Positions 1-20,000 of a stretch of 20,000 bases of DNA are shown piece after piece. A model generated the notes under the pieces. It searched no databases and was not told the origin of the DNA. It saw only the letters and a list, made by a program, of their open reading frames with translations. Source of the stretch: an uncultured virus (IMG/VR IMGVR_UViG_3300025769_011517) (lineage: Duplodnaviria; Heunggongvirae; Uroviricota; Caudoviricetes); IMG/VR virus record IMGVR_UViG_3300025769_011517; one strand, given 5' to 3'. The position numbers were made by a program, and so were the translations under genes. Position 1 is the first letter of the stretch. Each line of letters opens with the position of its first letter.

Positions 1-612
1 AGATTTAACGTAGAGCAGCTCTGCACGCTTAACGTCCATACCTGTCATCTCTTTAAGAAGAATGCTATAGATCGTAATCTGCATCTTCTTCTCCCACTCG
101 TACTGCTTGCGAGGCTTCTTACCTGTCTTGTAATCCGAGATTACTAGCTTACCGTCCTCAATCGTGTAACGGTCAATGATGCCAAAGATGGGTACGCCAT
201 CAATGTCGCCGTCCATCTTGGCTTCAATACCTTCAGCGTCAAACTTCGTGGGGTCTTCCATCCCGAAGTAGTTTTCGATACACCACCAAGCCTTCCACTT
301 AAATGCATTAGGATCATCTTCACGATCAGCCAAAGCAAAGTACTCATCAGCCCACTTTGACTCCCACAAGCTCTTCGCTAAACGACTCGCAGCCTTTTCT
401 GTCCGCTCTTCCGCAGGAAGCTTAAACAACTCTTCCAACACTTCATGAACAAACGAACCCAGATGCTGCGCTTCAGTAGACTCCGATGGAAGCTTATCTA
501 GTTTTGAAAACTTAAACTTTAACGGACACTGCTGAAACGTGCTGATAGAACTAGGCGACATGTACCTCGGATACTCATAAGGCAACGGACCTAAATCCAA
601 ACTATCCTGCAT
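1..612 (-). CDS. RecB-family / PD-(D/E)XK exonuclease (3' end runs off the window)
   Basis: Not in the ORF track because it is truncated. Manual translation from ATG at 612: MQDSLDLGPLPYEYPRYMSPSSISTFQQCPLKFKF...GSFVHEVLE...GIIDRYTIEDGKLVISDYKTGKKP...QITIY. Shows the SPSS..CP, G..H..LE, GxIDR, DYKTG and QxxxY motifs of the PDDEXK_1 family. Confidence 0.9.
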   Translation of the reverse strand, partial: MQDSLDLGPLPYEYPRYMSPSSISTFQQCPLKFKFSKLDKLPSESTEAQHLGSFVHEVLEELFKLPAEERTEKAASRLAKSLWESKWADEYFALADREDDPNAFKWKAWWCIENYFGMEDPTKFDAEGIEAKMDGDIDGVPIFGIIDRYTIEDGKLVISDYKTGKKPRKQYEWEKKMQITIYSILLKEMTGMDVKRAELLYVKS

Positions 613-1276
613 CAGTGTCAGCCCCTGCCTGCGTTTCGCTGCTCTCAGCATTCATCGACTTAACAAAATCCAACATAGTCTTCAGCAAGTCACGAGTAAT
701 ATTCTCATTCGCAAACTCAGCATTGTTAGAAATCTCTGACCAATGCGCACGACAAGCATCCATAACACTCTGCGACTGACTGTTCAGTACTTCTCGCAAC
801 TTCTCAAAATGCTCCGCTGAAATAGGCTGCTCAGCTACCTCTTGAGCATACTCTAAACTCATTGACTCTTCAGAACGAGCAAGATACAAACCGACACCGA
901 AGTGCTGCGCTGCCTTCTTCAAAGCATCAGACACCGCTCCCTTCATCTCGTCGCCAAGATCAACAATGTCACCATTCTTCGTGCGCTTAATCTTCTGACC
1001 GCCAATACCGTCCTTAACGACAGTTAGCGCAGGCGCATTATCCGTGGGAACAAAAGTAGCAGTGAGTCGGACATGTGCAACAACATAGTCAGGGTCCAAA
1101 GTATCACGGGCACACGAAACAATATGGTAAGACCACATGTCCACACCTAGTACCCGATTTAATCTAGTAATCACCTCACTAACAGGAATATACGTAAGGC
1201 TTGCCCCGCCCTTCTTTAGCTGCTTCTCAACCGAAGGGTCAAAAGGCTCTGATAACGCTGATAACATATTACTCAC
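602..1276 (-). CDS. Rad52/Rad22-family (Sak-like) single-strand annealing protein
   Basis: Motifs LSEPF, LTYI..SEVITRLNRVLG..W, DGIG and KGAVSDALKKAAQHFGVGLYL; adjacent to an exonuclease. Confidence 0.88.
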   Translation of the reverse strand: MSNMLSALSEPFDPSVEKQLKKGGASLTYIPVSEVITRLNRVLGVDMWSYHIVSCARDTLDPDYVVAHVRLTATFVPTDNAPALTVVKDGIGGQKIKRTKNGDIVDLGDEMKGAVSDALKKAAQHFGVGLYLARSEESMSLEYAQEVAEQPISAEHFEKLREVLNSQSQSVMDACRAHWSEISNNAEFANENITRDLLKTMLDFVKSMNAESSETQAGADTDAG

Positions 1277-1791
1277 TTGTCTCTCCTAATAACTAGACTC
1301 TTCTTAGCTTCGCCAACTTCACAGTAATCATCTGCATCCAAATGAAGGTCCTTCAACTTAGAAACCTTCCAATACGAAATACCGGCAAACTCCAACGCCT
1401 CACGAATCATATCCGTGGGAGTCTTCACAATTTCACCGGTACTCATATCGACACTGCTGTCAACAATACGCTTACTTACATCTTCAATCAATGACTTATG
1501 ATCCCATGTCTTACGAGGTGAACCTGCCTTAATCTCAACAGTCGCCCCATCAACTTGAACAGGAACAGGAACATTACCAAGCTGCTCCGTAATCATAGAC
1601 TGAAGCTCATTAAACAACTCAGTCGTGTACGACTTAACCAAATGCATATCACTCGCCAACTGCATCGTCTCTTCAACAGACGCATAATCCAAATTTGAGG
1701 TGTCTTTCATCTCTAGTATGTCACGCTCAACTGAACGAAGCGCCGTATAAACTGACTTCAAAGATGCAGTCGGATTTTCTAATACTGACAT
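1273..1791 (-). CDS. Hypothetical phage protein
   Basis: 172-aa ORF with an AAGGAG RBS and its own promoter; 4-nt overlap with the Sak gene. Confidence 0.8.
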   Translation of the reverse strand: MSVLENPTASLKSVYTALRSVERDILEMKDTSNLDYASVEETMQLASDMHLVKSYTTELFNELQSMITEQLGNVPVPVQVDGATVEIKAGSPRKTWDHKSLIEDVSKRIVDSSVDMSTGEIVKTPTDMIREALEFAGISYWKVSKLKDLHLDADDYCEVGEAKKSLVIRRDK

Positions 1792-1821
1792 TATGTCTCC
1801 TTAATAAATAGTATCAACCAT

Positions 1822-1850
1822 AGACTACCCAAAACAACTGCAGTAGTCAA
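1822..1850 (-). promoter_or_regulatory. Sigma70/SigA-type promoter
   Basis: Minus strand TTGACT-N17-TAGTCT upstream of the 1791 gene. Confidence 0.6.
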
Positions 1851-2239
1851 GCCTCATCATCTAGTAAACGCTTCAACGCAGACTCAAAACTGACCTCATC
1901 AGGATCATTTGAGTACACAAATATAACATCATTCAATATTGCATCAAGCTCCTTAGCCAACAACTTGATCGCCATCTCCCGCACATCCGCAGGCTCATCA
2001 GAATCATAACGTTCTCTTACCGTGGATGCTATCTCAGAAGCAATCGCTTCATCCACATAGTCATCTAAATACTCTTGCGCCACAACAATCTGCATCTCTT
2101 TCTTTTTCCACATTACCAGATCGTAGTCTTTATCATTAATAGCACCACGTGGAGCAGTCAAGAACGTGACCTCAATCTGCCCACGTTTAACAACTGCTAA
2201 CACATCACTGTCAAACTCATCAGCCCAATCATAAATCAT
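1847..2239 (-). CDS. Hypothetical acidic protein
   Basis: 130-aa ORF with an ATGA overlap with whiB. Confidence 0.7.
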   Translation of the reverse strand: MIYDWADEFDSDVLAVVKRGQIEVTFLTAPRGAINDKDYDLVMWKKKEMQIVVAQEYLDDYVDEAIASEIASTVRERYDSDEPADVREMAIKLLAKELDAILNDVIFVYSNDPDEVSFESALKRLLDDEA

Positions 2240-2460
2240 GAATTAACTAACCTGTCCAACTCTGGCCCGGTCTTACCACCCCACACACCAATCGTGATTT
2301 TATTCGTGACTGCAAAATCTAAGCACTTAGCAGAAGCGGTACAACCTGCACAAACCTTAACGGCGCTCTTGCGTTGCGACGGCTTGCTCGAAAAAAACGT
2401 TCGGTCATTACCCCGACACGGCGCACTCTCAAACCACTCAGGGCTAGAAAGTTTAATCAT
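2236..2460 (-). CDS. whiB: WhiB-family Fe-S transcription factor
   Basis: W...APC, C-x2-C-x5-C (CAGCTASAKC) and GVWGG motifs; AAGGAG RBS. Confidence 0.92.
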   Translation of the reverse strand: MIKLSSPEWFESAPCRGNDRTFFSSKPSQRKSAVKVCAGCTASAKCLDFAVTNKITIGVWGGKTGPELDRLVNS

Positions 2461-2538
2461 AAATCTCCTTAATTATAAACAACATACGTGTAATATCATA
2501 CCTGTCACCCGTCAAGGAGACAAGCCAAAACCTACCCC

Positions 2539-2567
2539 TTGACCTGCGCCGTCGAAGCCAGTAGCAT
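2539..2567 (+). promoter_or_regulatory. Sigma70-type promoter facing the ORF-free structured region
   Basis: TTGACC-N17-TAGCAT. Confidence 0.6.
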
Positions 2568-2572
2568 ACTCA

Positions 2573-3000
2573 CAAACTACTACACAAGGAGCACACTGCC
2601 ACAAGACTGCAGCCGGGTAATCCCGATGACATAAACGTTCACTGAAGGACCGGTGGGTTACACTCGTTACGCAACTGGTACTAACACTTAAGAAACAAGA
2701 GGGCACGCCTGCCCAAAGAGGAACGATCTGAATCGCACGATAAACTGGACACACATCCTTGACGAGATGCCAGTCACTGCACGGAGAACATCAAGCCTTG
2801 AGGAACAGGTTCGGAACAAGCAAACGCCCATGCGGTTCCGGCACACGGGCTACTAGAGCCATATCTAGGGAGAGTGGGCATCGCTGAAAAAGATAGGCGG
2901 TGCTTGGGGTCCATGAAGTGAACAGCCTTGAATAAACCAATTGGGTTCGTCCCAGCCTCTCGTGCGTTAGCGTCAACTACCACACGAAAGGGAGGGAAAA
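2573..3000 (+). ncRNA. Candidate large structured non-coding RNA (family not recognised)
   Basis: No credible ORF and an upstream promoter. Long-range stem 2637-2651/2908-2923, plus local hairpins at 2614-2625, 2701-2714, 2744-2774, 2826-2850, 2853-2868, 2876-2905, 2942-2954 and 2956-2995. Confidence 0.5.
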
Positions 3001-5430: not shown

Positions 5431-6405
5431 ATGGATAAAGATAAACTTCTCGAAGATGCTCTAGGACAAATTGAAAAGCAGTTTGGCGCTGGAAGCATCA
5501 TGCGTCTAGGCGACGCTGCTTCAATGCAAATTGAAACGATTTCAACCGGCTCTATCGCTCTTGACTTGGCGCTAGGGGTTGGAGGTGTTCCTCGTGGACG
5601 AGTCACCGAAATCTACGGACCTGAGTCTTCTGGCAAGACAACCATTGCCCTGCATGTGATTGCAGAAGCCCAAAAGAAAGGTGGCAAGTGTGCATTCATT
5701 GATGCGGAGCACGCCCTAGACCCTGTGTATGCTAAAGCAATCGGATGCGACATTGACAATCTTTTGGTTGCACAGCCAGACACAGGTGAGCAAGCCCTGA
5801 CCATTACTAACAAGCTGATTGAATCAGGCGCTCTAGACGTAGTAGTTGTAGACTCAGTTGCTGCGCTCACTCCTCGTGCCGAGATTGAAGGCGAAATGGG
5901 AGACAGCCACGTTGGCCTGCACGCTCGTCTGATGTCGCAGGCGATGCGAAAGATTGTAGCTAACCTTAATCACTCTAAGACAACCCTTATCATGATTAAC
6001 CAGTTGCGTGAAAAAATTGGTGTCATGTTCGGTTCTCCTGAAGTAACCACTGGCGGCAAGGCACTCAAGTTCTATGCGTCAGTTCGGATGGACATTCGTC
6101 GTATCGAAACGCTGAAGGACGGTGGCGAAGCATCTGGCAATAAGACACGAGTCAAGGTTGTCAAGAACAAGTGTGCTCCTCCTTTCCGTCAGGCAGAGTT
6201 TGAAATTGCATACGGTGAAGGAATCAGCCGTACCGGAGACATCGTGGACATTGCTGCTGAGATGGGTATCCTTGACAAGAAGGGCGCATGGTACGCCTAC
6301 AAAGGCGAGAACATTGGACAGGGCCGTGCCAATACCAAAGCTTTCTTGGATGAAAACGAGCAAATCCGAGAGACAATCGCAGATACCATCTACGCAACAA
6401 TTTGA
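5431..6405 (+). CDS. recA: Recombinase A
   Basis: [41 protein letters not shown] and [12 protein letters not shown]. Bacterial-type RecA lacking a long C-terminal tail. Confidence 0.98.
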
Positions 6406-7441: not shown

Positions 7442-7649
7442 CTACATAGTCTAATACAGTACCCATTAGATGCAGTGCAAGACCCGCAAGAGAAATATAT
7501 ATTCCCTGACGTAACGTGGTCGATGACAAGGTGATCAACACCAACCCTGTACCTGCTAATGTCCATCCGAGGTAAAGCATTTCTCTACCCATACGACGGA
7601 CGGCCCCTACTGCTAGTTTGATTATTTTTTTCATGGTGCCTCCTTTCAC
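7413..7649 (-). CDS. Small two-TM membrane protein (true start may be 7634)
   Basis: WTLAGTGLVLITLS and IYISLAGLALHL; coupled to the upstream large gene. Confidence 0.7.
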   Translation of the reverse strand: MKGGTMKKIIKLAVGAVRRMGREMLYLGWTLAGTGLVLITLSSTTLRQGIYISLAGLALHLMGTVLDYVDDERENESN

Positions 7650-9721
7650 CGAGACCTTCTTCTAGAATTACCCTTTTTACCTTTACCTCCACCGGAGTCG
7701 CCTCCGGGGCCTCCTCCTCCGCCACCACCGGAAGGACCGCCACCGCCGCCACCGGCAGGACCAGCAGATGTCGCAGCAGTGGCTACAGTCACGGCTGCGG
7801 CGGCAGCAACAACAGTACGACGAGTTTCTGTATCAACCACAGAACCCTCAGCGATGTATTCATTGAAAGCCTCGTCGTCAAAGATATCTACAGTCTCTTC
7901 AAACTCTGCCTTAACTTCGTCGTCCGCTTCGTTAACGGCAGCGACGAGAACAACTTTGGCATCGTCAGAGATGTTGTCAAAGTTTTCGTCAGTCACAAGG
8001 CTTTTGATTTCTTCCGTGGTGATTTCACCGTCAACGACATTCAAGAAATCTTCCGCAAGTTCCTCATCAAGCTCGTCTAGTTGTTCCACAACTTTGACTT
8101 CTGCTTCATCAACCTCAAGCAATTCAACGCCTTGAGTATCAATACCGAGTTCCTCAAACTCCACTTTAGTTTCAGCGGCTTTTTCTTCTTCAGGTGTCGG
8201 TGGAATGGTCGTTATTACCGGCAGCGTCGTCGTTGTCGTCGTTGGCGGCAGCGTTGTTGTCGTGCTTGTTGTAGTTGTAGTACTTGTTGTTGAAGAAGTA
8301 GTCGTAGTTGGGGTTACCGTAGTCGTCGTAGGCGGTAGGGTTGTAGTCGTTGATGTTGTCGTCGTAGTGGTAGATGGCGGTGCCTCCGTCGTTGTAGTTG
8401 TAGGCGCTACCGTCGTCGTAGTTGTAGGCGGCAACGTCGTTGTTGTCGTTACAGGTATTGTAGTGGTTGTGGTCGTGGTTGGAGGCAAGGTCGTAGTAGT
8501 TGTTGTCGTCGTGGTCGTCGTTGTGGTCGGGGGAACGGTGGTTGTCGTCGTGGTAGTCGGAGGAGTACCTTCTGAAACTTGAATTTCCATCGTCTCTCCA
8601 ACATGACAATCGTTCTCAGAACCGCAAGCAAGAATGTTAAAGAACCACGTCGCACTACCTAGGTCATCATAAGCAACCGTGTGAGAAGTCGAAGAAATGG
8701 TTTGAGTATAAGTAATGTTAGACTCATCTATTTCCCACGGATTACCAAGTTGGTTCCAAGCGATCTTGTAATGCGCAGGATCGACAAAACCGTCACTAGA
8801 AGCATCCCAACTAAATGTGATGTCGCCAGTAGCGTCATCCCGTTCGTAAGTCTGGTTGTCAACTATGTCGGGCATATTCATGATGGAGATGGAGGCAACA
8901 GATGTCCAATTAGAGTACAAAGCGTTAGTGTCGTTATCCGAGCGAACATTAACGTTGAACAAACCGTGTGCTTCGTTGAACAACTGCTCTATGTAAGAAG
9001 CGTTGAACGTATACTCGGTAACGAGAGCGTTCTCATCTCCAACGTTACCAGTAGCAACGCCATACGGTCCAGCGTTCCCGTCGTCATTCAGACCAAACCC
9101 AATAGCGTAACGTTCTGGATCAACGTTTCCGTCAGTTGGTGCATCCCAATCAGCCTTCACCGTACCGTTGTAGTAGTCAACGGTTAAAGTCAAATTGGTA
9201 GGATCGCCTATAGTTTGAGGAATTGTCGTCGTGGTCGTTGTGGTGGTTGTAGTGGTTGTGGTCGTGGTTGTGGGTATACTGTCTGAAGTTAAAGACAGAT
9301 CAGCAACTATTTCATAGTCATAACCAGACGGGTTCGAACCCAAGCCACGCAAACTGCAGCAATAGCCAGCCCTAATTCTGTAATCTCCAGCATTTAGGGT
9401 GGTATAAATCTTTGACGAAACACACTGATCAGCGAAGTTGTGGTTACCGTCGTCGTTTTGCGCAACTAACGCTCCAGTAGATTCGGGACCGTCTTCGTAT
9501 ACCCATAAATAGGGGTCTGCGCCGGGTTCTGAGCATGACCTGTTTGAATTACCATAGATAATGACTTGAGTCCCGTCATTATCAATTGAAAAGTACCAGT
9601 CAGATTCTTCGGTGACTGTGTATGTGGCGGCGGCTGCAGGTACAGGAGAAAACCACGCTAAAGCAAAAACCCACACAAGAGAAGCTTTAGCTGCACGCCT
9701 AAAATGTCTACCTCGACTCAT
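7646..9721 (-). CDS. Large secreted/surface protein: signal peptide, PPC-like and FN3-like domains, Thr-rich linkers, acidic domain, C-terminal hydrophobic + Gly-rich + basic tail
   Basis: ATG at 9721 with a GGAGA RBS. Basic/hydrophobic N-terminus ending PAAAA; DPYLWVY...NDDG; W.AP and FSWDA FN3-like motifs; long poly-Thr tracts. Confidence 0.8.
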   Translation of the reverse strand: MSRGRHFRRAAKASLVWVFALAWFSPVPAAAATYTVTEESDWYFSIDNDGTQVIIYGNSNRSCSEPGADPYLWVYEDGPESTGALVAQNDDGNHNFADQCVSSKIYTTLNAGDYRIRAGYCCSLRGLGSNPSGYDYEIVADLSLTSDSIPTTTTTTTTTTTTTTTTIPQTIGDPTNLTLTVDYYNGTVKADWDAPTDGNVDPERYAIGFGLNDDGNAGPYGVATGNVGDENALVTEYTFNASYIEQLFNEAHGLFNVNVRSDNDTNALYSNWTSVASISIMNMPDIVDNQTYERDDATGDITFSWDASSDGFVDPAHYKIAWNQLGNPWEIDESNITYTQTISSTSHTVAYDDLGSATWFFNILACGSENDCHVGETMEIQVSEGTPPTTTTTTTVPPTTTTTTTTTTTTTLPPTTTTTTTIPVTTTTTLPPTTTTTVAPTTTTTEAPPSTTTTTTSTTTTLPPTTTTVTPTTTTSSTTSTTTTTSTTTTLPPTTTTTTLPVITTIPPTPEEEKAAETKVEFEELGIDTQGVELLEVDEAEVKVVEQLDELDEELAEDFLNVVDGEITTEEIKSLVTDENFDNISDDAKVVLVAAVNEADDEVKAEFEETVDIFDDEAFNEYIAEGSVVDTETRRTVVAAAAAVTVATAATSAGPAGGGGGGPSGGGGGGGPGGDSGGGKGKKGNSRRRSR
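8205..8560 (-). repeat. Low-complexity (ACN)n Thr-coding tract
   Basis: Encodes repeated (L/V)PPTTTTTT units. Confidence 0.85.
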
Positions 9722-9769
9722 AATATCTCCACAAAACAGCACTTAACATTTATTGTACAAGGAAAGCCC

Positions 9770-11467: not shown

Positions 11468-11935
11468 ATGGACAAGAATGAATGCAAAAGCGCAGTTGAG
11501 CTACTGAGCGTGACATGGAACCAGTCACTAGACAATGCCTCGTTAACCATCAGAATGAAAGGCTACTGGGAATACATTAGCGACCTAGACTACGAGGCAG
11601 TAAGAGACACTATCAAAGAGATGGGTATCTCAGGCAAGAAGTGGCTACCCCGGCCCGGAGAACTTCGAACTATTGTTTTGGCAAAGATTAACGGAGAAGA
11701 ACTTCCTCCTGAACCTGAAGAAGCGTGGACAGTACTTCAAGCTATTGGGCAAAAGATTTATAGCGGCACGTATGATTACAACAAGCCCCATCCCGTTCTG
11801 GCAGAAACCATCAAACGGTTGGGCACAAACGCTACCGCATTGACAACCAACGCAGATCGTGCTATGTTTATCTCTTTGTACGAGAAGACACGAGAAGCGT
11901 GGATACTAGAAAGGTACGGTTATGGAACCGATTGA
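11468..11935 (+). CDS. Helicase loader/inhibitor-like protein (SPP1 G39P-like)
   Basis: W.EYISDLDYEAV......KWLPRPGELR...EEAW pattern, directly upstream of the primase-helicase. Confidence 0.55.
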   Translation: MDKNECKSAVELLSVTWNQSLDNASLTIRMKGYWEYISDLDYEAVRDTIKEMGISGKKWLPRPGELRTIVLAKINGEELPPEPEEAWTVLQAIGQKIYSGTYDYNKPHPVLAETIKRLGTNATALTTNADRAMFISLYEKTREAWILERYGYGTD

Positions 11936-13718
11936 TAACGTATTAGCACGGCTAAACAGTAAAAAGTCAGGCAACAATCAGTGGGATGCAACGTGCCCTT
12001 GCCGTTCTGACGATGACAATCCTTCTCTTCGTGTATCTGTAGGCCGTCAGGGACAAGTCCTGATGAAGTGCCTACGGGGCGGAGGGTGCGACCTTAACGA
12101 GATTTGTGAATCTATTGACCTTACCACGTCGGACCTTTTCCCTAAAGACACTGAAGCCCCCAAGAAGCCTAAGCTAAACCTAGTAGACACCTACCCTTAC
12201 TACGATGAGGAAGGCTCACTAGTGATGGAAGTTCTTAGGTTTGTGGACGAGCGAGGCAAGAAGACTTTTAGGCAGCGTCAGCCTGATGCCAACGGCGGCT
12301 GGAACTGGTCAACATCAGACTTGCAGAAGCCTCTCTATAGGCTTCCTCAGGTGCTCGCCGCTAAAGAAGAAGGCCGACCTATCTATGTTGTTGAAGGTGA
12401 GAAAGACGTACACTCACTTGAAGACTTAGGGAAGACTGCTACAACAAACCCTGGCGGTGCAGGTGCTGAGGGGCAAAACAAATGGATGGCTCACCACACC
12501 GCAGCGCTGGCCGGAGCTAACGTTATCATTATCTGTGATAACGATGAAGCGGGCTATCTCCACGCAAGATCAGTCAATAAAATGCTGACCGAGGCAGGAT
12601 GCAAAGTAAAGGTCTTCAAGCCCGGAAAGCACAACGACGTTTCTGACTTGATTAATGCTGGTGAAGAACTTAGCGATAGCCTCATTCCTTTTGACACTAG
12701 CGTTGAAGATGACGTGGTTCCTGAAGAAACCGAATCACCTCTAGACAAACTCATCTACGATCTATCAGACTTGAAAGATCAAGACTTGTCATCAGGTGTC
12801 CTTATGGGCAGAGTTGCGTCAAGCCTTGACGCATTCATTTCACAAAAAGATCGTCAACACAGAGACAATGGTAATCTGGTAGAGTGGACTCCTTTCTTAG
12901 AAACAGACGTTGATCTCTCCTACGATTGGGTTATCCCTAACGTACTAGAACGCCAAGAACGAGTCATTGTTGTTGCCGCTGAAGGCGCAGGTAAAACTAC
13001 TCTCGCCCGACAGGTTGCGCTAATGTCTGCTGCAGGCATTCACCCTTTCAGACGAGACGTTATGAAGCCTGCCCGTACTCTCATGATCGACTTGGAAAAC
13101 CCTGAGCGAATCATTAGACGAACATCAATGCGAATCTATGACAAAATCAAATGGTTTGAAAAGCACGAAAGCATGGACGCCCATCTACTCATGAAGCCTG
13201 ACGGCGTTAACTTGCTAACCCCTGCAGACCGAGCCATGATTGAAGAGCACGTTGCGGCAATCCAGCCTGACATCTTGTTCTTTGGTCCTCTGTACAAGGC
13301 GTTCATTGATCCCGGTGGACGCACGGCAGAATCAGTCTCAATTGAAATCGCAAGGTTCTTAGACTACCTTCGCCACACCTACAACTGTGCGCTATGGATT
13401 GAGCACCACGCCCCCTTGGGGTCTGGTGGACAGCGAGACCTTCGTCCTTTCGGTTCAGCAGTATGGTCAAGATGGTCAGAGTTCGGTATTGCTCTAGCGC
13501 CTGATCCCACCGATCCTGAGCTTATTGAGTTTAAGCACTACCGTGGACAGCGAGAAGCTAGAGAATGGCCTGCGCTTTGCAAGCGTGGCGATACTTGGCC
13601 CTTTGAAGTTGTAGAGTTCTCTCAGTACAACTCCACGGTAGAAAGTGGCCGGACAGACGAAGAACTTAACACGGCTCTGGAAAACGAAGAGTTTGACGAC
13701 GAAGTAATTAACTGGTAA
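11922..13718 (+). CDS. DNA primase (Zn-binding + Toprim) fused to a RecA-like AAA helicase
   Basis: CPC..D.NPSL...C..GC zinc finger; VVEGEKD and DNDEAG Toprim motifs; AAEGAGKTT Walker A, IDLEN and EHH...R.FGS. Confidence 0.9.
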   Translation: MEPIDNVLARLNSKKSGNNQWDATCPCRSDDDNPSLRVSVGRQGQVLMKCLRGGGCDLNEICESIDLTTSDLFPKDTEAPKKPKLNLVDTYPYYDEEGSLVMEVLRFVDERGKKTFRQRQPDANGGWNWSTSDLQKPLYRLPQVLAAKEEGRPIYVVEGEKDVHSLEDLGKTATTNPGGAGAEGQNKWMAHHTAALAGANVIIICDNDEAGYLHARSVNKMLTEAGCKVKVFKPGKHNDVSDLINAGEELSDSLIPFDTSVEDDVVPEETESPLDKLIYDLSDLKDQDLSSGVLMGRVASSLDAFISQKDRQHRDNGNLVEWTPFLETDVDLSYDWVIPNVLERQERVIVVAAEGAGKTTLARQVALMSAAGIHPFRRDVMKPARTLMIDLENPERIIRRTSMRIYDKIKWFEKHESMDAHLLMKPDGVNLLTPADRAMIEEHVAAIQPDILFFGPLYKAFIDPGGRTAESVSIEIARFLDYLRHTYNCALWIEHHAPLGSGGQRDLRPFGSAVWSRWSEFGIALAPDPTDPELIEFKHYRGQREAREWPALCKRGDTWPFEVVEFSQYNSTVESGRTDEELNTALENEEFDDEVINW

Positions 13719-13728
13719 GGTAGACAAC

Positions 13729-14754
13729 ATGAGAAAGCGCATTTTACTAACAGGTGGACTTGGGTTCATCGGATCACACACCGTAGAACATTGGCTAAAA
13801 ACGACAGACTGGGACATTGTTGTCTTAGACTCTCTAAGGTTCTCCGGCAGAATTGAAAGACTGCTGGACATTGAAGCCTACGACCCCAAACGGGTTACCC
13901 CTCTATGGCATGATCTCCGAGCACCCCTCCACGATCAAATCAAGCGACAAATCGGAGACATCGACTACATCGTCAACATGGCATCCGACTCGCACGTAGA
14001 CCGGTCCATCACTGAACCAGTTGACTTTGTACAAAACAATGTAAGCCTTGCACTAAACATGCTGGAGTATGCACGAGACGTACAGCCAGAAAAGTTTATT
14101 CAAGTATCAACAGACGAAGTATACGGACCTGCCCCCGTCGGACACGACCACGCAGAAGGAGAGCCGCATAGGCCCTCTAACCCTTACTCTGCATCAAAGT
14201 CTGCACAGGAAGCAATAGCTTTCTCATACTGGAGAACATACAACGTTCCCGTATACATCACCAACACCATGAACAACTTTGGCGAAAGACAGCACCCCGA
14301 AAAGTATGTTCCCATGGTCATCAACAAGATACTTAATGGTGAACAAATTGAAGTCCACAGCCGCCCTAACGAAAACGGCGAATGGACAATTGGATCACGA
14401 GTATGGCTACACGCACGCAACCATGCGGACGCAGTACAGCACATACTTCAAAACATTGACCATCAGCAGTACGTCAACAGCGACGTAACGCCTGACCTTC
14501 AACGCTACAACGTATCTGGCGACAGAGAAATCGACAACCTGCAAATCGTGAACATGATCAGCGATATTGTAGGCAAGCCCGCAAACTATGAGCTTGTGGA
14601 CTACCACTCTAGCCGACCCGGACACGACTTGCGTTACTCGCTCAATGGTGATAAACTTAAAAACGCTGGATGGACAGCACCCATGAGTGTTGAAGAATCG
14701 TTTGAAAAAACAGTCAACTGGACACTTCAGCATCCCGAGTGGCTGCTAGATTGA
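13729..14754 (+). CDS. dTDP-glucose 4,6-dehydratase-like NAD-dependent epimerase/dehydratase (RmlB-like)
   Basis: TGGLGFIGS, ASDSHVDRSI, VSTDEVYG, PYSASK, NNFGERQHPEK and RPGHDLRY. Confidence 0.9.
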   Translation: MRKRILLTGGLGFIGSHTVEHWLKTTDWDIVVLDSLRFSGRIERLLDIEAYDPKRVTPLWHDLRAPLHDQIKRQIGDIDYIVNMASDSHVDRSITEPVDFVQNNVSLALNMLEYARDVQPEKFIQVSTDEVYGPAPVGHDHAEGEPHRPSNPYSASKSAQEAIAFSYWRTYNVPVYITNTMNNFGERQHPEKYVPMVINKILNGEQIEVHSRPNENGEWTIGSRVWLHARNHADAVQHILQNIDHQQYVNSDVTPDLQRYNVSGDREIDNLQIVNMISDIVGKPANYELVDYHSSRPGHDLRYSLNGDKLKNAGWTAPMSVEESFEKTVNWTLQHPEWLLD

Positions 14755-14762
14755 TGTCACAC

Positions 14763-14791
14763 TTGACATAAACCAAACGGTTGCATATTAT
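14763..14791 (+). promoter_or_regulatory. Promoter of putative sRNA
   Basis: TTGACA-N17-TATTAT. Confidence 0.7.
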
Positions 14792-14796
14792 AAGAG

Positions 14797-14881
14797 TAGT
14801 CCTCTCATAATACACAAACAGCACTTTGGGTATTTCCAACGAGGAAGTGACCCCGGCCTTAGGGCTGGGGTCACACTATTT
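14797..14881 (+). ncRNA. Candidate ~85-nt small RNA
   Basis: Lies between a near-consensus promoter and a strong hairpin; contains no ATG; internal TCCTC/GAGGA and TTGG/CCAA stems. Confidence 0.45.
14847..14881 (+). terminator. Terminator hairpin
   Basis: GTGACCCCGGCC-ttag-GGCTGGGGTCAC followed by ACTATTT. Confidence 0.7.
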
Positions 14882-14894
14882 ACAGCCTACTTAT

Positions 14895-14923
14895 TTGACA
14901 TACCATTACAAGTGTGTTATAAT
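14895..14923 (+). promoter_or_regulatory. Perfect consensus sigma70 promoter
   Basis: TTGACA-N17-TATAAT with a TGn extension. Confidence 0.85.
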
Positions 14924-14951
14924 GAAGGCTCCATAACAAAAGGAGAAGAAT

Positions 14952-15545
14952 ATGGAATCAACAAACGAATACGCCGTTTTCCTAGACGTAGACGGTGTAA
15001 TTAACAGCATCAACCACCTGTACACTCGTGGCGAGCTTGACTTTGACGCAGAAACTCTGCCTCATCCCGCCAACGGCTACACAGTGTGGGTTCCCGACTA
15101 CATGGCGTCACTTGTGCAGGGGCTTTACAAGAGCACCGACCTGTACTGGCTGACCACGTGGCGAGATAATGCAAACCAGCACATTTCGCCCATTCTCGGA
15201 ATCCCCGAAGACATTCCCGTCATTGACGACGGCACCAAGGAACGTGCAGTGCACTGGAAGTTTGATGCATGCCTTCCCCTGGCGCAAGAACTTGCAGCCA
15301 AGGGACAGAAAGTATACTGGATCGAAGACTTTGGCGGACGGATCGACCCCCGCCACTCGCCTTACCTTACCTACGTAGACACCGACACTCGTGACGAAGG
15401 AGTCCTACTCCCTCAGCACCTGCCCTACGAACTGCAGGAGCACATCATTGACCACGGCGACTACAACGGCCCCCTGTACCTTAAGGCCCCTCGCACGAAG
15501 AGCAACTTCACGGTCCACACCCGTAACTTCGGAGTAGACGCCTGA
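14952..15545 (+). CDS. HAD-superfamily hydrolase (HAD_SAK-like)
   Basis: FLDVDGVIN, WLTTWRDNA, WK and WIED motifs. Confidence 0.8.
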   Translation: MESTNEYAVFLDVDGVINSINHLYTRGELDFDAETLPHPANGYTVWVPDYMASLVQGLYKSTDLYWLTTWRDNANQHISPILGIPEDIPVIDDGTKERAVHWKFDACLPLAQELAAKGQKVYWIEDFGGRIDPRHSPYLTYVDTDTRDEGVLLPQHLPYELQEHIIDHGDYNGPLYLKAPRTKSNFTVHTRNFGVDA

Positions 15546-16225
15546 TGACAAACCAGATCACAGTGCTAGACCAAGGCTTCGTAAGACTAGACGCCGCAAC
15601 AGCAGACGACCTGTCCGTAGTAAACGCCGCACGAGTCAGCTTTGGTCAGCACAGTGACGGCCTAACCGAAAAAGACAAAGGTCTCATCGGTTTCCTGATG
15701 CGGGAACAGCACGGAACCCCCTTCGAACACAACTTCTTCAGGTTCCACATCAAAGCACCTATCTTTGTTGTGCGAGAATGGTTCCGTCACCGCATCGGCT
15801 GGTCATACAACGAATACTCTGGACGATACTCAGAGATTCCCACCGAAGCCTACATGCCCGCAACCGAACAAATGCGGACACAAGTAGGCAAGCCCGGATC
15901 ATACACATTTGAACCCATGGAATCTGCAGAGTTCTCCGAAGCCCGAATGAAACTATCATACCACGCTAGTTTCCACGCCTACGAGAAACTCCTAGAAGAA
16001 GGCGTAGCAAAAGAAGTAGCCCGCATGGTGCTACCCGTCGCAACCTACAGCGAATTCTACGCCACAACAAACGCACGGGCACTCATGAACTTCATCAACC
16101 TACGAGGCGACGAAACCGCCCAATGGGAGATTAGACAATACGCAGATGCCTTGGAACACTTCTTCCAAGCAGCAATGCCCATCACACACGACCACTTCAT
16201 CAACAACGGGCGAGTAGCGCCCTGA
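15545..16225 (+). CDS. thyX: Flavin-dependent thymidylate synthase
   Basis: VNAARVS, HGTPFEH, REWFRHRIGWSYNEYSGRY, EVARMVLP and AQWEIR. Confidence 0.97.
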   Translation: MTNQITVLDQGFVRLDAATADDLSVVNAARVSFGQHSDGLTEKDKGLIGFLMREQHGTPFEHNFFRFHIKAPIFVVREWFRHRIGWSYNEYSGRYSEIPTEAYMPATEQMRTQVGKPGSYTFEPMESAEFSEARMKLSYHASFHAYEKLLEEGVAKEVARMVLPVATYSEFYATTNARALMNFINLRGDETAQWEIRQYADALEHFFQAAMPITHDHFINNGRVAP

Positions 16226-16236
16226 AAAGGAGAAAC

Positions 16237-17097
16237 ATGAAACACACAATTTACTGGAACGAAAAGTACACAGGCGCTGAACACGCCTTCGACACCACCC
16301 GCAAAAGCGGCGAAATCGCAGACGCAATCGGTCACGAACACATCACCGACCCCGCCAGCAACGGACACGTCGCCCTACACAACGCAAACGACGAAATCAA
16401 AAAGGCGCTGAGCGCCGACTACTACGAAGACCTGAAAACCGGTGGACCCAAGTCGCAATCCAACGGATTCGCATGGGACTACGGCATTTGGGAAATGGCA
16501 CTCAACTCCACAGCAGGAGTCATGTCAGCCACGGCAGAAGCCATCGTCAACAACACCGTAGCAGGAAGCCTCTCTTCAGGACTTCACCACGCCCACCACA
16601 ACAACGGCGCAGGGTTCTGCACAGTCAACGGCCTAGCCGTCACAGCAAACTGGCTCAACTCCCTACACGTCACCATCCTAGACTTCGACGCCCACTGCGG
16701 CGGAGGAACCGTCAAAATGCTACGGCACCTCAACATCGACTCCAGAGTGGAACAATACGACATCTCCACCAACTACTTTGACCAATACGAAGAAGATGAA
16801 ACACACAACATCCGAATCGCACAATCAGACGCAGACTACACAGATGCCGTAAACGAAACACTAAACAAAGTTAACCCCAACACAAACGTGATTTTGTACA
16901 ACGCAGGAACAGACCCCTACCCCACAATCTCACACGAAACACTAGCCGAACGAGAAAACACCGTATTCCAATGGGCAAAACAACACAACATCCCCATCGC
17001 ATACGTACTCGCCGGAGGCTACACCTCTGCCCAAACCATGGACAGCCTCGTAGACTCCCACATCAACACACTAGACGCCGCAGAAAGCATCGTGTAA
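16237..17097 (+). CDS. Histone-deacetylase-family (Zn-dependent) amidohydrolase
   Basis: GLHHA, GFCTVNGLA, ILDFDAHCGGGT, YNAGTDP and LAGGY. Confidence 0.88.
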   Translation: MKHTIYWNEKYTGAEHAFDTTRKSGEIADAIGHEHITDPASNGHVALHNANDEIKKALSADYYEDLKTGGPKSQSNGFAWDYGIWEMALNSTAGVMSATAEAIVNNTVAGSLSSGLHHAHHNNGAGFCTVNGLAVTANWLNSLHVTILDFDAHCGGGTVKMLRHLNIDSRVEQYDISTNYFDQYEEDETHNIRIAQSDADYTDAVNETLNKVNPNTNVILYNAGTDPYPTISHETLAERENTVFQWAKQHNIPIAYVLAGGYTSAQTMDSLVDSHINTLDAAESIV

Positions 17098-17106
17098 AAT
17101 AACACC

Positions 17107-17463
17107 ATGGACCCATACGAAACCTTCCCCACATACAGAGCAACAAAAAACTGTTTAGACGACCTCAACCCCGACGCACTACTAGCCGACGGACTTGAAT
17201 TCGCCTGCATAGGATGGACCGAAGTATGGGTCCCCCAACAAACAGGCGGCGTAGAACGCCTCCCAATCGCCGTATACAGCAAAAACAAAGTCATCGCCAT
17301 ACTCATGGAAGAAACAGACATGACACTAGAAGACGCACTAGAATACGCCGAATACAACATCTACGCCGCCTACATGGGACCCAACACCCCCATCTTCATA
17401 GACGACAGCTTCCAAACCATCCCCACACAACCCGTCCACCCACAAGACATGTACGAACTGTGA
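17107..17463 (+). CDS. Conserved phage hypothetical protein
   Basis: LADGLE.A.IG...AVYS..KVI..L...MT.EDA.EY.EYNI.AAYMG.NTPIF, a pattern common in aquatic phages. Confidence 0.8.
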   Translation: MDPYETFPTYRATKNCLDDLNPDALLADGLEFACIGWTEVWVPQQTGGVERLPIAVYSKNKVIAILMEETDMTLEDALEYAEYNIYAAYMGPNTPIFIDDSFQTIPTQPVHPQDMYEL

Positions 17464-19346
17464 AACGACTCTACCTCAACGGCACAAAACTCATCCTAGA
17501 CACACCATACAACAAAGATGAAGTACAAGCCCTAAAAACATCATTCCCCAACGCACGCTGGGACAAAATCAACAAACACTGGACACTACCCGTAGCCGCC
17601 CTAAAACGAGCCATATCCTTCGCCAACTCATGGAACATCAACGTGGACGAAGAACTCATAAGGCTACAACTACCCGACCACCCAATCGGCACAACCACCA
17701 TCAGACTCGAAAAAGAAATCCTAAAAATCAGCGTCCCCTACGACACCCTACAAATCCACGACCTCAAAGCCATCCCCGGCATAAAATGGAACCCCCACCA
17801 AAACCACTGGGAAACACCATACAACAACGTCCACGAACTCATCCAATGGGCAGACAAATACAACCACCCCATCCCCAACCACATCCGCACACAAGCAGAA
17901 ATCGAAACCAAAAAAGCCCAACACGCCCAAGAACTCACACAAGCAACCGACGCAAACATCAACATCCCAACCCTCCAACTCCAACTCTACCCATACCAAA
18001 AAGCAGGCGTAGCCTACGCCGCAGAAAAACAACGCACCTTCATCGCAGACGAAATGGGCCTCGGCAAATCACTCCAAGCCCTCGCAACCACAGAACACAC
18101 AAACCAATACCCCGCCCTCATCATCTGCCCAACCAGCCTCACAGAAGACTGGAAAACCAAAATCCAAGAAGCCCTACCCCACCGCACCATCCAAACCATC
18201 CAAGGCCGCAAAACCCCCACACTGACCGAAACCGACTACACCATCATCGGATACCCCAACATCCACGCCCAAAAACAACACCTCAACAACCAACACCACA
18301 ACACCCTCATCCTAGACGAATCCCACTACTGCAAAAACCCAGACGCACAACGCACCAAAGCCGCCAAAAACATCGCCAAAAACATCCCAACCACCGGCAA
18401 CATCCTCCTCCTCACCGGCACACCCATCACCAACATGCCAGCCGAATACGCCCCACAACTCGAAATCCTCGGCCACATCGACAACTTCGGAGGCCGCTGG
18501 AACTTCTACAAACGATACTGCGGAGCCTACAGAGACAACTGGGGCCACTGGCAAATCCACGGCTCAACCAACAACAAAGAACTCCTCAACAAACTACAAA
18601 CCCACTGCTACATCCGCAGAGAAAAACAACACGTCCTCACCGACCTCCCACCAATCACATACAACACCATCCACACCACAATGGACAAAAAACACCGCAC
18701 CATGTACAACCACGCCCTCAACGACCTCCAAGAATGGTACACCCAACAACAAGAACAAATCGCCATCAACGAAGGCACCAACCCCAACCAAGCCCGAATC
18801 CGAGCACACTACGCAACACAAAACTACGAAACCCTCATCCAACTCACAGAACTCAGAAAAATCGCCGCCAACTCCAAAATCCCCCACGCCCTAGAATGGA
18901 TCGAAAACGCCAACAACTCAGGACAAAAAATCGTCATCGCCGCCCACCACCGCCAAATAGTACAAACCCTAGCAAACGAACTCAACGCCCCAATGATCAT
19001 CGGAGGCCAAAACCCCCAAAAGACCGAAACCGCCAAACAAGAATTCCAACAAAACACAAACTGCATGAACATCATCATCTCAATAGACGCAGCCGCACAC
19101 GGACACACCCTCACAGCATCAAACAACATGCTCTTCATCGAAGCCCCCTGGACACCCGCCAAATACCACCAAACCTGCGCCCGAATCCACCGAATCGGAC
19201 AAACCAAACCCGCCACCATCCACAACCTCATCAACCCCAACACCATCGACCAACACATCTACAACACACTACAAAACAAAACCCAAAAAACACAACCAGC
19301 AATCACACCCACAGCCATACAAAACATCCTCAACACAAAACCCTGA
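17460..19346 (+). CDS. SNF2-family helicase with two N-terminal HARP-like domains
   Basis: Probable GTG start at 17460 (GTGA overlap). Motifs LYPYQ, IADEMGLGKS, ILDESH, LTGTP, GHTLT and ARIHRIGQ; two PY...LK..P...W...W repeats at the N-terminus. Confidence 0.9.
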   Translation: MKRLYLNGTKLILDTPYNKDEVQALKTSFPNARWDKINKHWTLPVAALKRAISFANSWNINVDEELIRLQLPDHPIGTTTIRLEKEILKISVPYDTLQIHDLKAIPGIKWNPHQNHWETPYNNVHELIQWADKYNHPIPNHIRTQAEIETKKAQHAQELTQATDANINIPTLQLQLYPYQKAGVAYAAEKQRTFIADEMGLGKSLQALATTEHTNQYPALIICPTSLTEDWKTKIQEALPHRTIQTIQGRKTPTLTETDYTIIGYPNIHAQKQHLNNQHHNTLILDESHYCKNPDAQRTKAAKNIAKNIPTTGNILLLTGTPITNMPAEYAPQLEILGHIDNFGGRWNFYKRYCGAYRDNWGHWQIHGSTNNKELLNKLQTHCYIRREKQHVLTDLPPITYNTIHTTMDKKHRTMYNHALNDLQEWYTQQQEQIAINEGTNPNQARIRAHYATQNYETLIQLTELRKIAANSKIPHALEWIENANNSGQKIVIAAHHRQIVQTLANELNAPMIIGGQNPQKTETAKQEFQQNTNCMNIIISIDAAAHGHTLTASNNMLFIEAPWTPAKYHQTCARIHRIGQTKPATIHNLINPNTIDQHIYNTLQNKTQKTQPAITPTAIQNILNTKP

Positions 19347-19431
19347 CATAACACAAACCAACCAACCCATAAAAAATATGTCACAAGTCCGCCCACGGAT
19401 GGAGGTCGCCCTCGAAAAGTCCCGGGCGATA

Positions 19432-19579
19432 CGAACAGGTGTTCGGTCGGGGTGGGCGAACAGGTGTTCGTGCGAACAGGTGTTCGGTCGTGTCGGCATG
19501 CGAACGTGTGTTCGTGCGAACGTGTGTTCGGTCGGGGCTGTCCGGGGTGCGAACATATGTTCGTGCGAACGTGTGTTCG
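19432..19579. repeat. Array of seven palindromic LexA (SOS/Cheo-type) boxes CGAAC-N4-GTTCG
   Basis: Boxes start at 19432, 19457, 19473, 19501, 19517, 19550 and 19566. Central spacers are AGGT x3, GTGT x3 and ATAT, all fitting RNRY. Confidence 0.85.
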
Positions 19580-19651
19580 TGCAAGCTTTGACCATCACAC
19601 GTCGACTCATCAAGCGTGAGATCGTTAAAGCCTTAACTATCTTTGGTGCAT

Positions 19652-19683
19652 GAAAGAACCCCGACCGCTGTGGCCGGGGTTCT
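19652..19683 (-). terminator. Intrinsic terminator for the minus-strand small gene
   Basis: Minus strand AGAACCCCGGCC-acagc-GGTCGGGGTTCT followed by TTC. Confidence 0.65.
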
Positions 19684-19690
19684 CGGGGGA

Positions 19691-19765
19691 TCACGAGTGC
19701 TTGTGCATGTCGTGGGTGATGAGTAGCGCTGCTGTGAAGAACAGTGCCAGTGAGATGAGTCCCAT
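19691..19765 (-). CDS. Putative 24-aa hydrophobic peptide MGLISLALFFTAALLITHDMHKHS
   Basis: AGAAAGG RBS before the ATG, with an upstream promoter and a downstream terminator. Confidence 0.45.
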   Translation of the reverse strand: MGLISLALFFTAALLITHDMHKHS

Positions 19766-19811
19766 CTCTGTGCCTTTCTGCCGATCCGGTAGTTCCGGTG
19801 CGACATGGATC

Positions 19812-19839
19812 ACTCTAGCGTATCTACTGCGCATGTCAA
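19812..19839 (-). promoter_or_regulatory. Sigma70-type promoter
   Basis: Minus strand TTGACA-N16-TAGAGT. Confidence 0.5.
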
Positions 19840-20000
19840 TAGCTTTGCCATAGTTGCTACAGATAGTTGTGATCGCTTTGATTGATAGCTCGCTGACTGG
19901 CATTCGTCGCCGTCCTGTTGCCGTTGCCGCCGCTCATGGCGAGTGCAATGGCGAGTGTTATGCCAGGATGCCGTCGCCTTCACCCCTCACCCTTCACCCC

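Follow-up and report, generated by a model that had tools for sequence, protein, structure and literature searches.

A strand-specific A/C skew that ends at a conserved element in large marine actinobacterial phages: a possible footprint of biased gene conversion

Introduction

What removes nearly every G and T from the silent sites of one DNA strand, gene after gene, and then stops within a few nucleotides (nt)? The question is raised by a stretch of 20,000 nt from an uncultured virus (Caudoviricetes; IMG/VR IMGVR_UViG_3300025769_011517), called the window here, in which the + strand grows richer in A and C, peaks in a gene for an SNF2-family helicase and switches to G/T richness at J1, a conserved three-box element to the right of the SNF2 stop codon. 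An earlier note on this DNA, made from its letters, had ascribed the pattern to single-stranded exposure near an origin of strand-displacement-type replication or a genome end, close to an array of SOS boxes. The window covers part of the genome of a large tailed phage, one of a set of large actinobacterial phages of marine origin. We found that the footprint at J1 is real, clade-wide and extreme, and that the skew tracks distance from J1, not gene identity. As to its cause, the reading we prefer, although it falls somewhat short of an even chance, is that cutting at J1 leaves a fixed end, that the 3′ strand of this end anneals to other genomes, and that the host mismatch nuclease NucS rejects the incoming G and T while passing A and C.

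Results

The SNF2 gene is nearly free of G and T at silent sites

The share of A+C at four-fold degenerate sites of the + strand rose along the following genes, given with their coordinates in the window.

5431..6405, + strand: RecA, the unskewed control (0.51) and a clue to the host
11922..13718, + strand: Toprim primase with AAA_25 helicase, the baseline (0.50)
13729..14754, + strand: NAD-dependent dehydratase, at the outer end of the gradient (0.67)
14952..15545, + strand: HAD-like protein (PF18143, below the curated cut-off), under the trend (0.57)
15545..16225, + strand: ThyX (0.82)
16237..17097, + strand: histone-deacetylase-family (HDAC-like) protein (0.87)
17107..17463, + strand: ORF118, a protein of 118 amino acids, phrog_13182 (0.96)
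17460..19346, + strand: SNF2-family helicase of 628 amino acids with a GTG start and its helicase motifs kept; the peak of the skew (0.99)
17630..19351, + strand: an open alternative frame of 573 codons, a side effect of the lack of T and not a gene

A or C occupied 263 of 265 four-fold sites in SNF2 against 142 of 282 in the primase gene (Fisher p 3e-47), and the 629 third positions of SNF2 comprised 376 C, 227 A, 25 G and a single T. The protein is shifted as well, with K, N, T, Q, H and P making up 0.449 of its residues and V 0.016; the same six residues account for 0.239–0.279 in 90 SNF2 homologs (P0031–P0120) of about 40% identity. These figures bear out what the earlier note had described, namely the near-absence of G/T third positions in SNF2, a protein rich in T, H, Q, N, K and P with few V, and the free use of G/T-ending codons by recA and the primase. 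The rise that it placed from the dehydratase onward is indeed graded up to SNF2, but the HAD-like gene dips below the trend. Overall G+C stayed near 0.50 and was unchanged by the skew. The 573-codon alternative frame is open because T is nearly absent from this strand of SNF2, and it held 0–5 stops in the 15 loci counted.

The G/T-rich arm to the right of J1 is short. The last three 200-nt bins of the window had an A+C of 0.39, 0.42 and 0.47, and in up to 14 relatives the mean past the SNF2 stop was 0.41 at 50–300 nt and 0.50–0.52 farther out; the right arm reaches about 300 nt, and the left gradient spans about 6 kb. The + strand is therefore G/T-rich past the junction, as had been noted, but only over this distance, and the mirror-image skew that was expected beyond it does not exist at J1 on the scale of kilobases. 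Positions 18020–20000 were matched by locus L096 at 99.95% and positions 17461–19957 by L079 at 97.3%, both in a single piece across the junction, which shows that it is not an assembly chimera.

The switch falls in the spacer of a conserved element

J1 has a fixed geometry of box A, box B, spacer and box C, which in the window is laid out as follows.

19347..19356, + strand: box A, CATAACACAA, probably an eroded form of the family motif GATAAATCTA, judging by position and spacing
19371..19385, + strand: box B, an A-tract followed by ATGTCACA
19386..19414, no strand: spacer of fixed length and variable sequence, with the A/C-to-G/T switch at ~19396 and the putative cut site
19415..19423, + strand: box C, AAAAGTCCC, with the invariant core AAAGT

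The sequence of the spacer (~28 nt) differs even among near twins. For the comparison of junctions, 86 sequences were reduced to 50, of which 27 belong to the clade and 23 were hand-picked from the wider family; the J1 geometry was common to these 23 as well. In the 27 distinct clade junctions the switch takes place within a few nucleotides, about 20 nt before the invariant AAAGT, with C at 0.67 in positions −27 to −21 and G at 0.44 in positions −21 to −15 relative to that core. Its position in the window, ~19396, was placed through the 99% twin L079, so that the sharp end reported earlier is real but does not lie at 19378. In the wider family, the kilobase to the left of J1 had an A+C of 0.63–0.74 in L269, L281, L287, L299, L300, L303 and L311, and of 0.46–0.58 in the others. 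We also scanned for the J1 pattern and inspected 80 of 118 stretches, judging 7 to be genuine from spacing and likeness and dropping 73 as chance matches. A search for an RNA gene at J1 gave no Rfam match within positions 14000–20000.

The skew depends on distance from J1

The clade set comprised 85 loci with an SNF2 of at least 55% identity, the window and duplicates counted in. G+T at four-fold sites was 0.06 or less in 77 of them and 0.25–0.36 in the other 8. When 20 loci were pooled, the one-strand A/C gradient was monotonic toward J1: the T/C ratio at four-fold sites fell from 1.2–1.7 beyond 5 kb to 0.002–0.008 within 1.5 kb of J1, and the G/A ratio at two-fold sites from 0.6–0.9 to 0–0.011 over the same range.

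Gene-specific selection on codons or amino acids, a transferred block or a chimeric assembly could come to mind here, given that the strongest skew sits in one gene of the clade and that a step looks alike in a single genome. We consider these causes hardly credible. The junction is unbroken in independent contigs, all 75 more distant SNF2 loci were unskewed (G+T 0.38–0.63), a step model fits far worse than a decay, and the skew of an intein, of other genes and of a second switch, J2, follows position. Across these related lineages the same gene was less skewed the farther it lay from J1 (rho −0.97 for the dehydratase, −0.67 for thyX, −0.62 for the HDAC-like gene and −0.59 for the primase), and genes were more skewed in lineages where deletions shorten the distance. 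The primase, unskewed in the window, reached 0.67–0.81 in relatives in which it lies 3.9 kb from J1. An intein inside the SNF2 gene of G005 had an A+C of 0.91 between flanks of 0.97 and 1.00, compared with 0.56 in the intein-bearing terminase gene, and in the distant relative G137 the skewed neighbour of J1 is a homolog of ORF118 and not SNF2. Since an intein, other genes next to J1 and the same genes brought nearer to it are all skewed, position and not the gene sets the skew. The pattern is thus positional and graded, as the earlier note had proposed, and not the step of an acquired block.

The insertions with intein ends in G005 lie at 55701–58658 and 27628–31101, that is, in the Walker A region of SNF2 and, as two insertions, in the large terminase gene; a LAGLIDADG domain is present in the SNF2 homologs P0007, P0010 and P0013. 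The HARP domain PF07443 is carried by the homologs P0010 and P0076, for which reason the SNF2 protein may be a SMARCAL1-like annealing helicase. Positions 17460–17870 of the window encode two similar N-terminal repeats of SNF2.

J1 is kept without skew in whole lineages (L092/L137/L158, L112–L116 and many freshwater relatives). In L092, L137 and L158 (G011) the amino-acid bias of SNF2 persists although its silent sites are partly relaxed (G+T 0.25), and private G/T sites are scattered over the middle of SNF2 in L119 and L161. From these traces the skewing force seems to switch off in some lineages. A fall of A/C 3′ of SNF2 in distant relatives was considered as a mirror arm and rejected: in G007 and G008 it turned out to be microsatellite DNA on the right of J1.

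A second, two-armed switch

J2 has the polarity of J1 and lies across the small-gene region from it, within a second WhiB gene that adjoins a helix-turn-helix (HTH) gene. It was two-armed in 4 of 5 clade loci. The A+C to its left and right was 0.97/0.04 in L263, 0.97/0.19 in L264 and 0.90/0.24 in L266; the switch was weaker in G011 and absent in L265. Minus-strand genes flip from 0.97 to 0.04 A+C across J2; the coding strand does not change at the switch, which therefore cannot be put down to codon choice or to transcription. J1 and J2 share one contig only in G011, where J2 (~68.8–69.0 kb) is about 29 kb from J1; G139, which carries J2, has no overlap with G002. A distant homolog of the HTH protein gave weak matches (E 6e-6 to 6e-3) to genes of 17 actinophage records that are labelled small terminase, RNase E or HTH protein, from which the HTH gene is a putative small-terminase gene. 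The large terminase is closest to that of psiM2 (44% identity), whose record likens its own enzyme to that of SPP1.

The WhiB protein at J2 (L263, L264, L266 and G011) has an N-terminal extension rich in T, K, Q, P and H. Three kilobases to the left of J2, G011 carries a small gene (65756–66091) with a match to a replication-initiation PHROG (E 2e-13), and a gene of the dCMP/cytidine deaminase family lies ~3 kb from J2 in L264 (4040–4426). In the freshwater relatives L306, L307 and L286 a two-armed switch (0.74 left, 0.29 right) occurs ~200–300 nt from the end of a WhiB-like gene. Within positions 1–3000 of the window itself there is a mild C-rich to G-rich change at ~2.6–2.9 kb, adjoining the WhiB gene of the window; the four-fold A+C to its left, 0.71–0.77, is barely above that of other minus-strand genes.

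SOS boxes are dispensable for the skew

Operator-like sequences follow J1 on its right, and small genes come after them.

19432..19579, no strand: seven LexA-type boxes, one of several interchangeable operator-like palindrome arrays

All seven are exact CGAAC-N4-GTTCG boxes, and with at most one mismatch the window holds 8 matches against 0.55 expected. They fit the core of the actinobacterial LexA operator consensus tCGAAC-N4-GNNCGa, which the available part of PMC9380542 gives for Streptomyces. The only sigma-70-like site found lies outside the array, at 19839–19812 on the minus strand. At 32 distinct junctions we counted at least one LexA box in 17, at least two DnaA boxes in 6, GTTAG-N6-YTAAC palindromes in 5 and no array at all in 9. 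An exact LexA box was lacking at 15 of the 32, among them the fully skewed L012, L081, L086, L094 and L097; SOS boxes are therefore dispensable for the skew, and the array neither marks nor causes it.

Up to 12 matches to DnaA boxes replace the LexA boxes in L008 (~12000–12300) and to the right of J1 in L101, L102, L110, L112 and L115, and other junctions carry repeats of TGTTAGGTCAGCTTAACA or palindromes of the form AAGTTAC-N7-GTAACTT or CCGAC-N7-GTCGG. We take the TGTTAGGTCAGCTTAACA repeats to resemble a DtxR/IdeR or TetR-family operator. The arrays look like interchangeable landing pads for host proteins; they are probably passengers as far as the skew is concerned, and probably load host proteins onto the DNA end that enters first. 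Of 42 viral loci with tandem SOS boxes, most lacked such a skew. The phage records L014, L025, L028, L044, L045 and L052 (64–68 kb, 65–67% G+C) have 2–3 tandem LexA-type boxes, which lie at a mild change of A+C from 45–47% to 52–54%.

The spectrum points to a bias in fixation

A mutational origin of the gradient would have J1 start leftward synthesis, by strand displacement, rolling circle or a D-loop, with the minus strand gaining G and T through single-strand deamination or through uncorrected G·T errors in the first kilobases of the new strand, and with J2 as a bidirectional start. This widened form of the model in the earlier note is the main rival; we hold it to be rather unlikely, though several observations favour it. 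The C-rich to G-rich switch at J1 does have the polarity of an origin, as the earlier note had stated, and so does J2; a mild + strand excess of A+C extends across the left arm in both gene orientations (0.51–0.61 and 0.63–0.69); a primase-helicase and SSB are encoded, as is a PolA that has an exonuclease domain; and DnaA boxes adjoin J1 in some relatives, although at least two were present at only 6 of the 32 junctions. Moreover, leading strands of Corynebacterium gain G and T, according to the part of PMC6159521 that is available.

Mutation models raise the mutation rate while conversion or selection biases fixation, and turnover tells them apart. We did not see the rise in transition turnover that mutation requires: among close pairs, which are few and non-independent, the transition/transversion turnover was 1.8–2.4 (NNY) and 0–1.6 (NNR) in the middle zone and 1.6–3.1 and 1.0–2.7 far from J1, against an increase of ~2.5-fold expected by a hand estimate. 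Several silent G/T sites were common to 23–33 of 79 loci, which also speaks against ongoing mutation from a replication start. The two transitions (T/C and G/A) dropped in lockstep, ~2–3-fold at 3–4 kb and more than 20-fold within 1.5 kb of J1, despite the fact that cytosine deaminates far faster than adenine. A loss of T to C far above that of G to A, tried as a candidate, was not upheld at two-fold sites, and neighbouring bases had no strong effect on the loss of T and G, with no deaminase motif among them. At 2–3.5 kb from J1 the pyrimidine share dropped in 8 of 8 codon families while C/(A+C) stayed near background, meaning that lost T goes to A as well as to C, a fall that a replication start does not predict. 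General hypermutation was ruled out by the A-C (transversion) divergence, lower in SNF2 than in the primase gene in 6 of 6 pair sets. The lockstep loss of T and G, the lack of a motif, the unraised transition turnover and the replacement of T by both A and C fit a fixation bias better than single-strand deamination, a conclusion that is tentative; the deamination invoked by the earlier note is thus disfavoured, except that a fit with transitions only ties in high-GC lineages.

Model fits pointed the same way for the shape of the gradient. Over 20 related loci an exponential decay of log-odds beat a mutation gradient by 12–19 log-likelihood units in 3 of 3 site classes, with a length scale of ~1.3–1.7 kb. 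Four-state fits, obtained with a rough optimiser on related loci, gave 7875.5 for conversion with an added A-to-C term in 8 low-GC loci, preferred over 7907–7921. In 12 high-GC loci, transitions only (16413.7) and conversion with the A-to-C term (16419.9) were tied, and strict NucS specificity gave 16557.8; the transitions-only model also yields the excess of C without an added term. A recombination test found site incompatibility rising with distance from 0.25 to 0.34 in SNF2, with the primase control saturated.

Selection on DNA near a fixed end would bias fixation as well. If the + strand were exposed during ejection or annealing, A/C-only DNA might be favoured for not folding back or for escaping nucleases, and such selection would fit the divergence, spectrum, decay and turnover and would be independent of gene and strand. 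We regard it as improbable, as it has no known agent, must outweigh protein constraint at many residues (a rise of K+N+T+Q+H+P from 0.26 to 0.45) and must switch off in the J1-bearing lineages that lack the skew.

Discussion

NucS as a candidate agent of strand-polar conversion

The preferred reading, biased conversion by NucS, begins with the host. Nine of the best 10 RecA matches listed were to Acidimicrobiia by title (67–71% identity), one of them Aquihabitans, which we count as a member of that class. NucS was present in 5 of 5 genomes behind the top RecA matches, and in the likely host order it scored above the cut-off in 70 of 121 genomes (the unpublished G053 included), compared with 0 of 121 for MutS_I; it was found in none of five phage records. 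In the available part of PMC11551744, NucS of M. smegmatis corrects incoming dG-dG, dG-dT, dT-dG and dT-dT to the resident strand, and dC-dC, dA-dA, dG-dA, dC-dA, dA-dC and dA-dG mismatches persist; cleavage of G/T, G/G and T/T mismatches by NucS is described in PMC6159521, likewise available in part. This specificity would rank A and C above G and T on an incoming strand.

Two genes at the left edge of the window encode enzymes that could act on such ends.

1..651, − strand: PD-(D/E)XK exonuclease (PF12705, E 5e-27), running past the window edge; candidate resection enzyme
602..1276, − strand: Rad52/Rad22-family single-strand annealing protein (PF04098, E 4e-13); candidate annealer of the 3′ strand

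J1 would be a fixed DNA end, most likely made by a terminase cut in the spacer at ~19396, so that the piece to its left ends in a + strand 3′ end. Resection of the opposite strand by the phage exonuclease would then leave the + strand to be paired, through RecA or the annealing protein, with another copy of the genome, in tracts that become rarer with distance from J1 on the length scale of the decay. In a host that probably has NucS/EndoMS in place of MutS, to judge from the likely host order, incoming A and C alleles would pass and G and T be rejected. The outcome would be a strand-polar conversion drive with the effect of selection, under which silent sites become fixed for A/C and the protein composition moves toward K, N, T, Q, H and P. 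The A/C-rich strand would be the 3′-ended one, in agreement with ordinary 5′-to-3′ resection. J2 may be a further break site whose two ends both take part in recombination, which would explain its two arms. At 4–5% of the genome, the 6-kb reach matches the terminal redundancy that headful packaging gives P22 or SPP1. A patchy distribution of NucS could explain lineages that have J1 without skew. The earlier suggestion of a genome end fares well in so far as the switch ends at a conserved cis element and an end is the identity we favour.

Several results weigh against this account. None of the 7 genuine J1 matches from the pattern scan lay at a contig end, and the putative small-terminase gene sits at J2, ~29 kb from J1 in G011. 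No NucS above the cut-off turned up in 51 of the 121 genomes of the likely host order. The strict NucS model gave the worst fit in both high-GC and low-GC groups, conversion was no better than tied with transitions only in the former, and within 2 kb of J1 there is more C relative to A than the background explains, a surplus that strict NucS specificity would not produce. The polarity and the mild genome-wide + strand excess of A+C fit leftward replication equally well. No significant distance trend was seen for 5 of 9 genes, four of them at least 4 kb from J1, in comparisons where lineages are related and codon use differs between genes. A/C-rich microsatellites occur on the opposite side, right of J1, in G007 (101.6–102.7 kb) and at the end and start of G008. 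Finally, five cultured phages with related terminase genes had no J1, and none was skewed (no more than 60% A+C in any kilobase).

A broader claim, which we regard as doubtful, is that NucS repair constitutes a general strand-polar conversion drive at recurrent breaks in the absence of MutS, with A/C favoured on the 3′-ended strand and G/T on the other. J1 and J2 would then be cuts bounding a long terminal repeat of early genes (~29 kb in G011), whose leftover ends are rescued by recombination until whole proteins are rewritten.

The phage and its other genes

By Pfam the window encodes an exonuclease, a Rad52-family annealing protein, WhiB, RecA, SSB, a primase-helicase, ThyX and the SNF2 helicase; one relative has genes for capsid, portal, terminase, a sigma factor and a PolA that includes an exonuclease domain. 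G011, the closest relative to be mapped, measures 128 kb, and complete distant relatives are 148–170 kb. In the available part of PMC6802176, whiB is a marker of actinophages. A minus-strand gene at 7646–9742 encodes a protein of 698 amino acids whose long threonine runs give rise to a G/T-rich patch at 8200–8600, which has no relation to the gradient.

Comparison with known systems

In GC-biased gene conversion, heteroduplex repair near breaks fixes bases regardless of fitness, with an effect that decays with distance and can override protein constraint. The pattern at J1 likewise resembles a fixation bias that decays from a break and overrides protein constraint, but A and C of one strand are favoured with G+C unchanged, and we propose NucS, working on phage DNA, as the agent. 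The filtering of oligonucleotide recombination by NucS in M. smegmatis gives the ranking of A and C over G and T that we see 2–5 kb from J1; it is, however, a laboratory editing outcome and not an evolutionary signature, and predicts no excess of C over A. Vertebrate mitochondrial DNA has one A/C-rich strand, graded with position, and a shifted protein composition. The skew at J1 shares these traits, but it spans ~6 kb, affects both transitions together with turnover not raised, and ends within a few nucleotides. A bidirectional origin would share the C-rich to G-rich polarity, whereas J1 has no mirror arm of similar reach and no conserved initiator boxes or iterons.

Pac-type sites serve headful packaging in SPP1, P22 and psiM2. 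J1 resembles them in having putative protein-binding boxes and A-tracts, set at constant intervals about a spacer whose sequence varies; it differs, with its putative cut site, in lying outside the putative small-terminase gene, and psiM2 has no such skew. As far as the available part of bioRxiv 10.1101/866236 describes it, the injection-stop region of T5 is non-coding, has repeats and DnaA boxes beside early genes and is not an origin. By analogy the arrays at J1 may be compared with it as non-coding repeats or DnaA boxes, although the boxes of T5 have a fixed arrangement in that account and those at J1 are LexA boxes, DnaA boxes, other palindromes or none among close relatives. We found no published description of this skew, of a J1-like element or of a NucS-driven strand bias in phages among the titles and abstract openings searched, which left subscription journals mostly uncovered.

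Were conversion by NucS to prove the cause, it would be a second kind of biased gene conversion, one that discriminates between amino (A/C) and keto (G/T) bases on a single strand and has enough force to alter roughly one in five residues of a conserved helicase. Base composition would then reveal where the genomes of uncultured phages break and end, an abrupt flip of skew in actinobacteria, archaea or their viruses would not have to indicate an origin, and phylogenies and tests of selection would be distorted in such organisms. Even if replication from J1 were responsible, a 6-kb zone with a strand bias of up to 100-fold that is on or off between lineages would be an unusual replication footprint for a phage.

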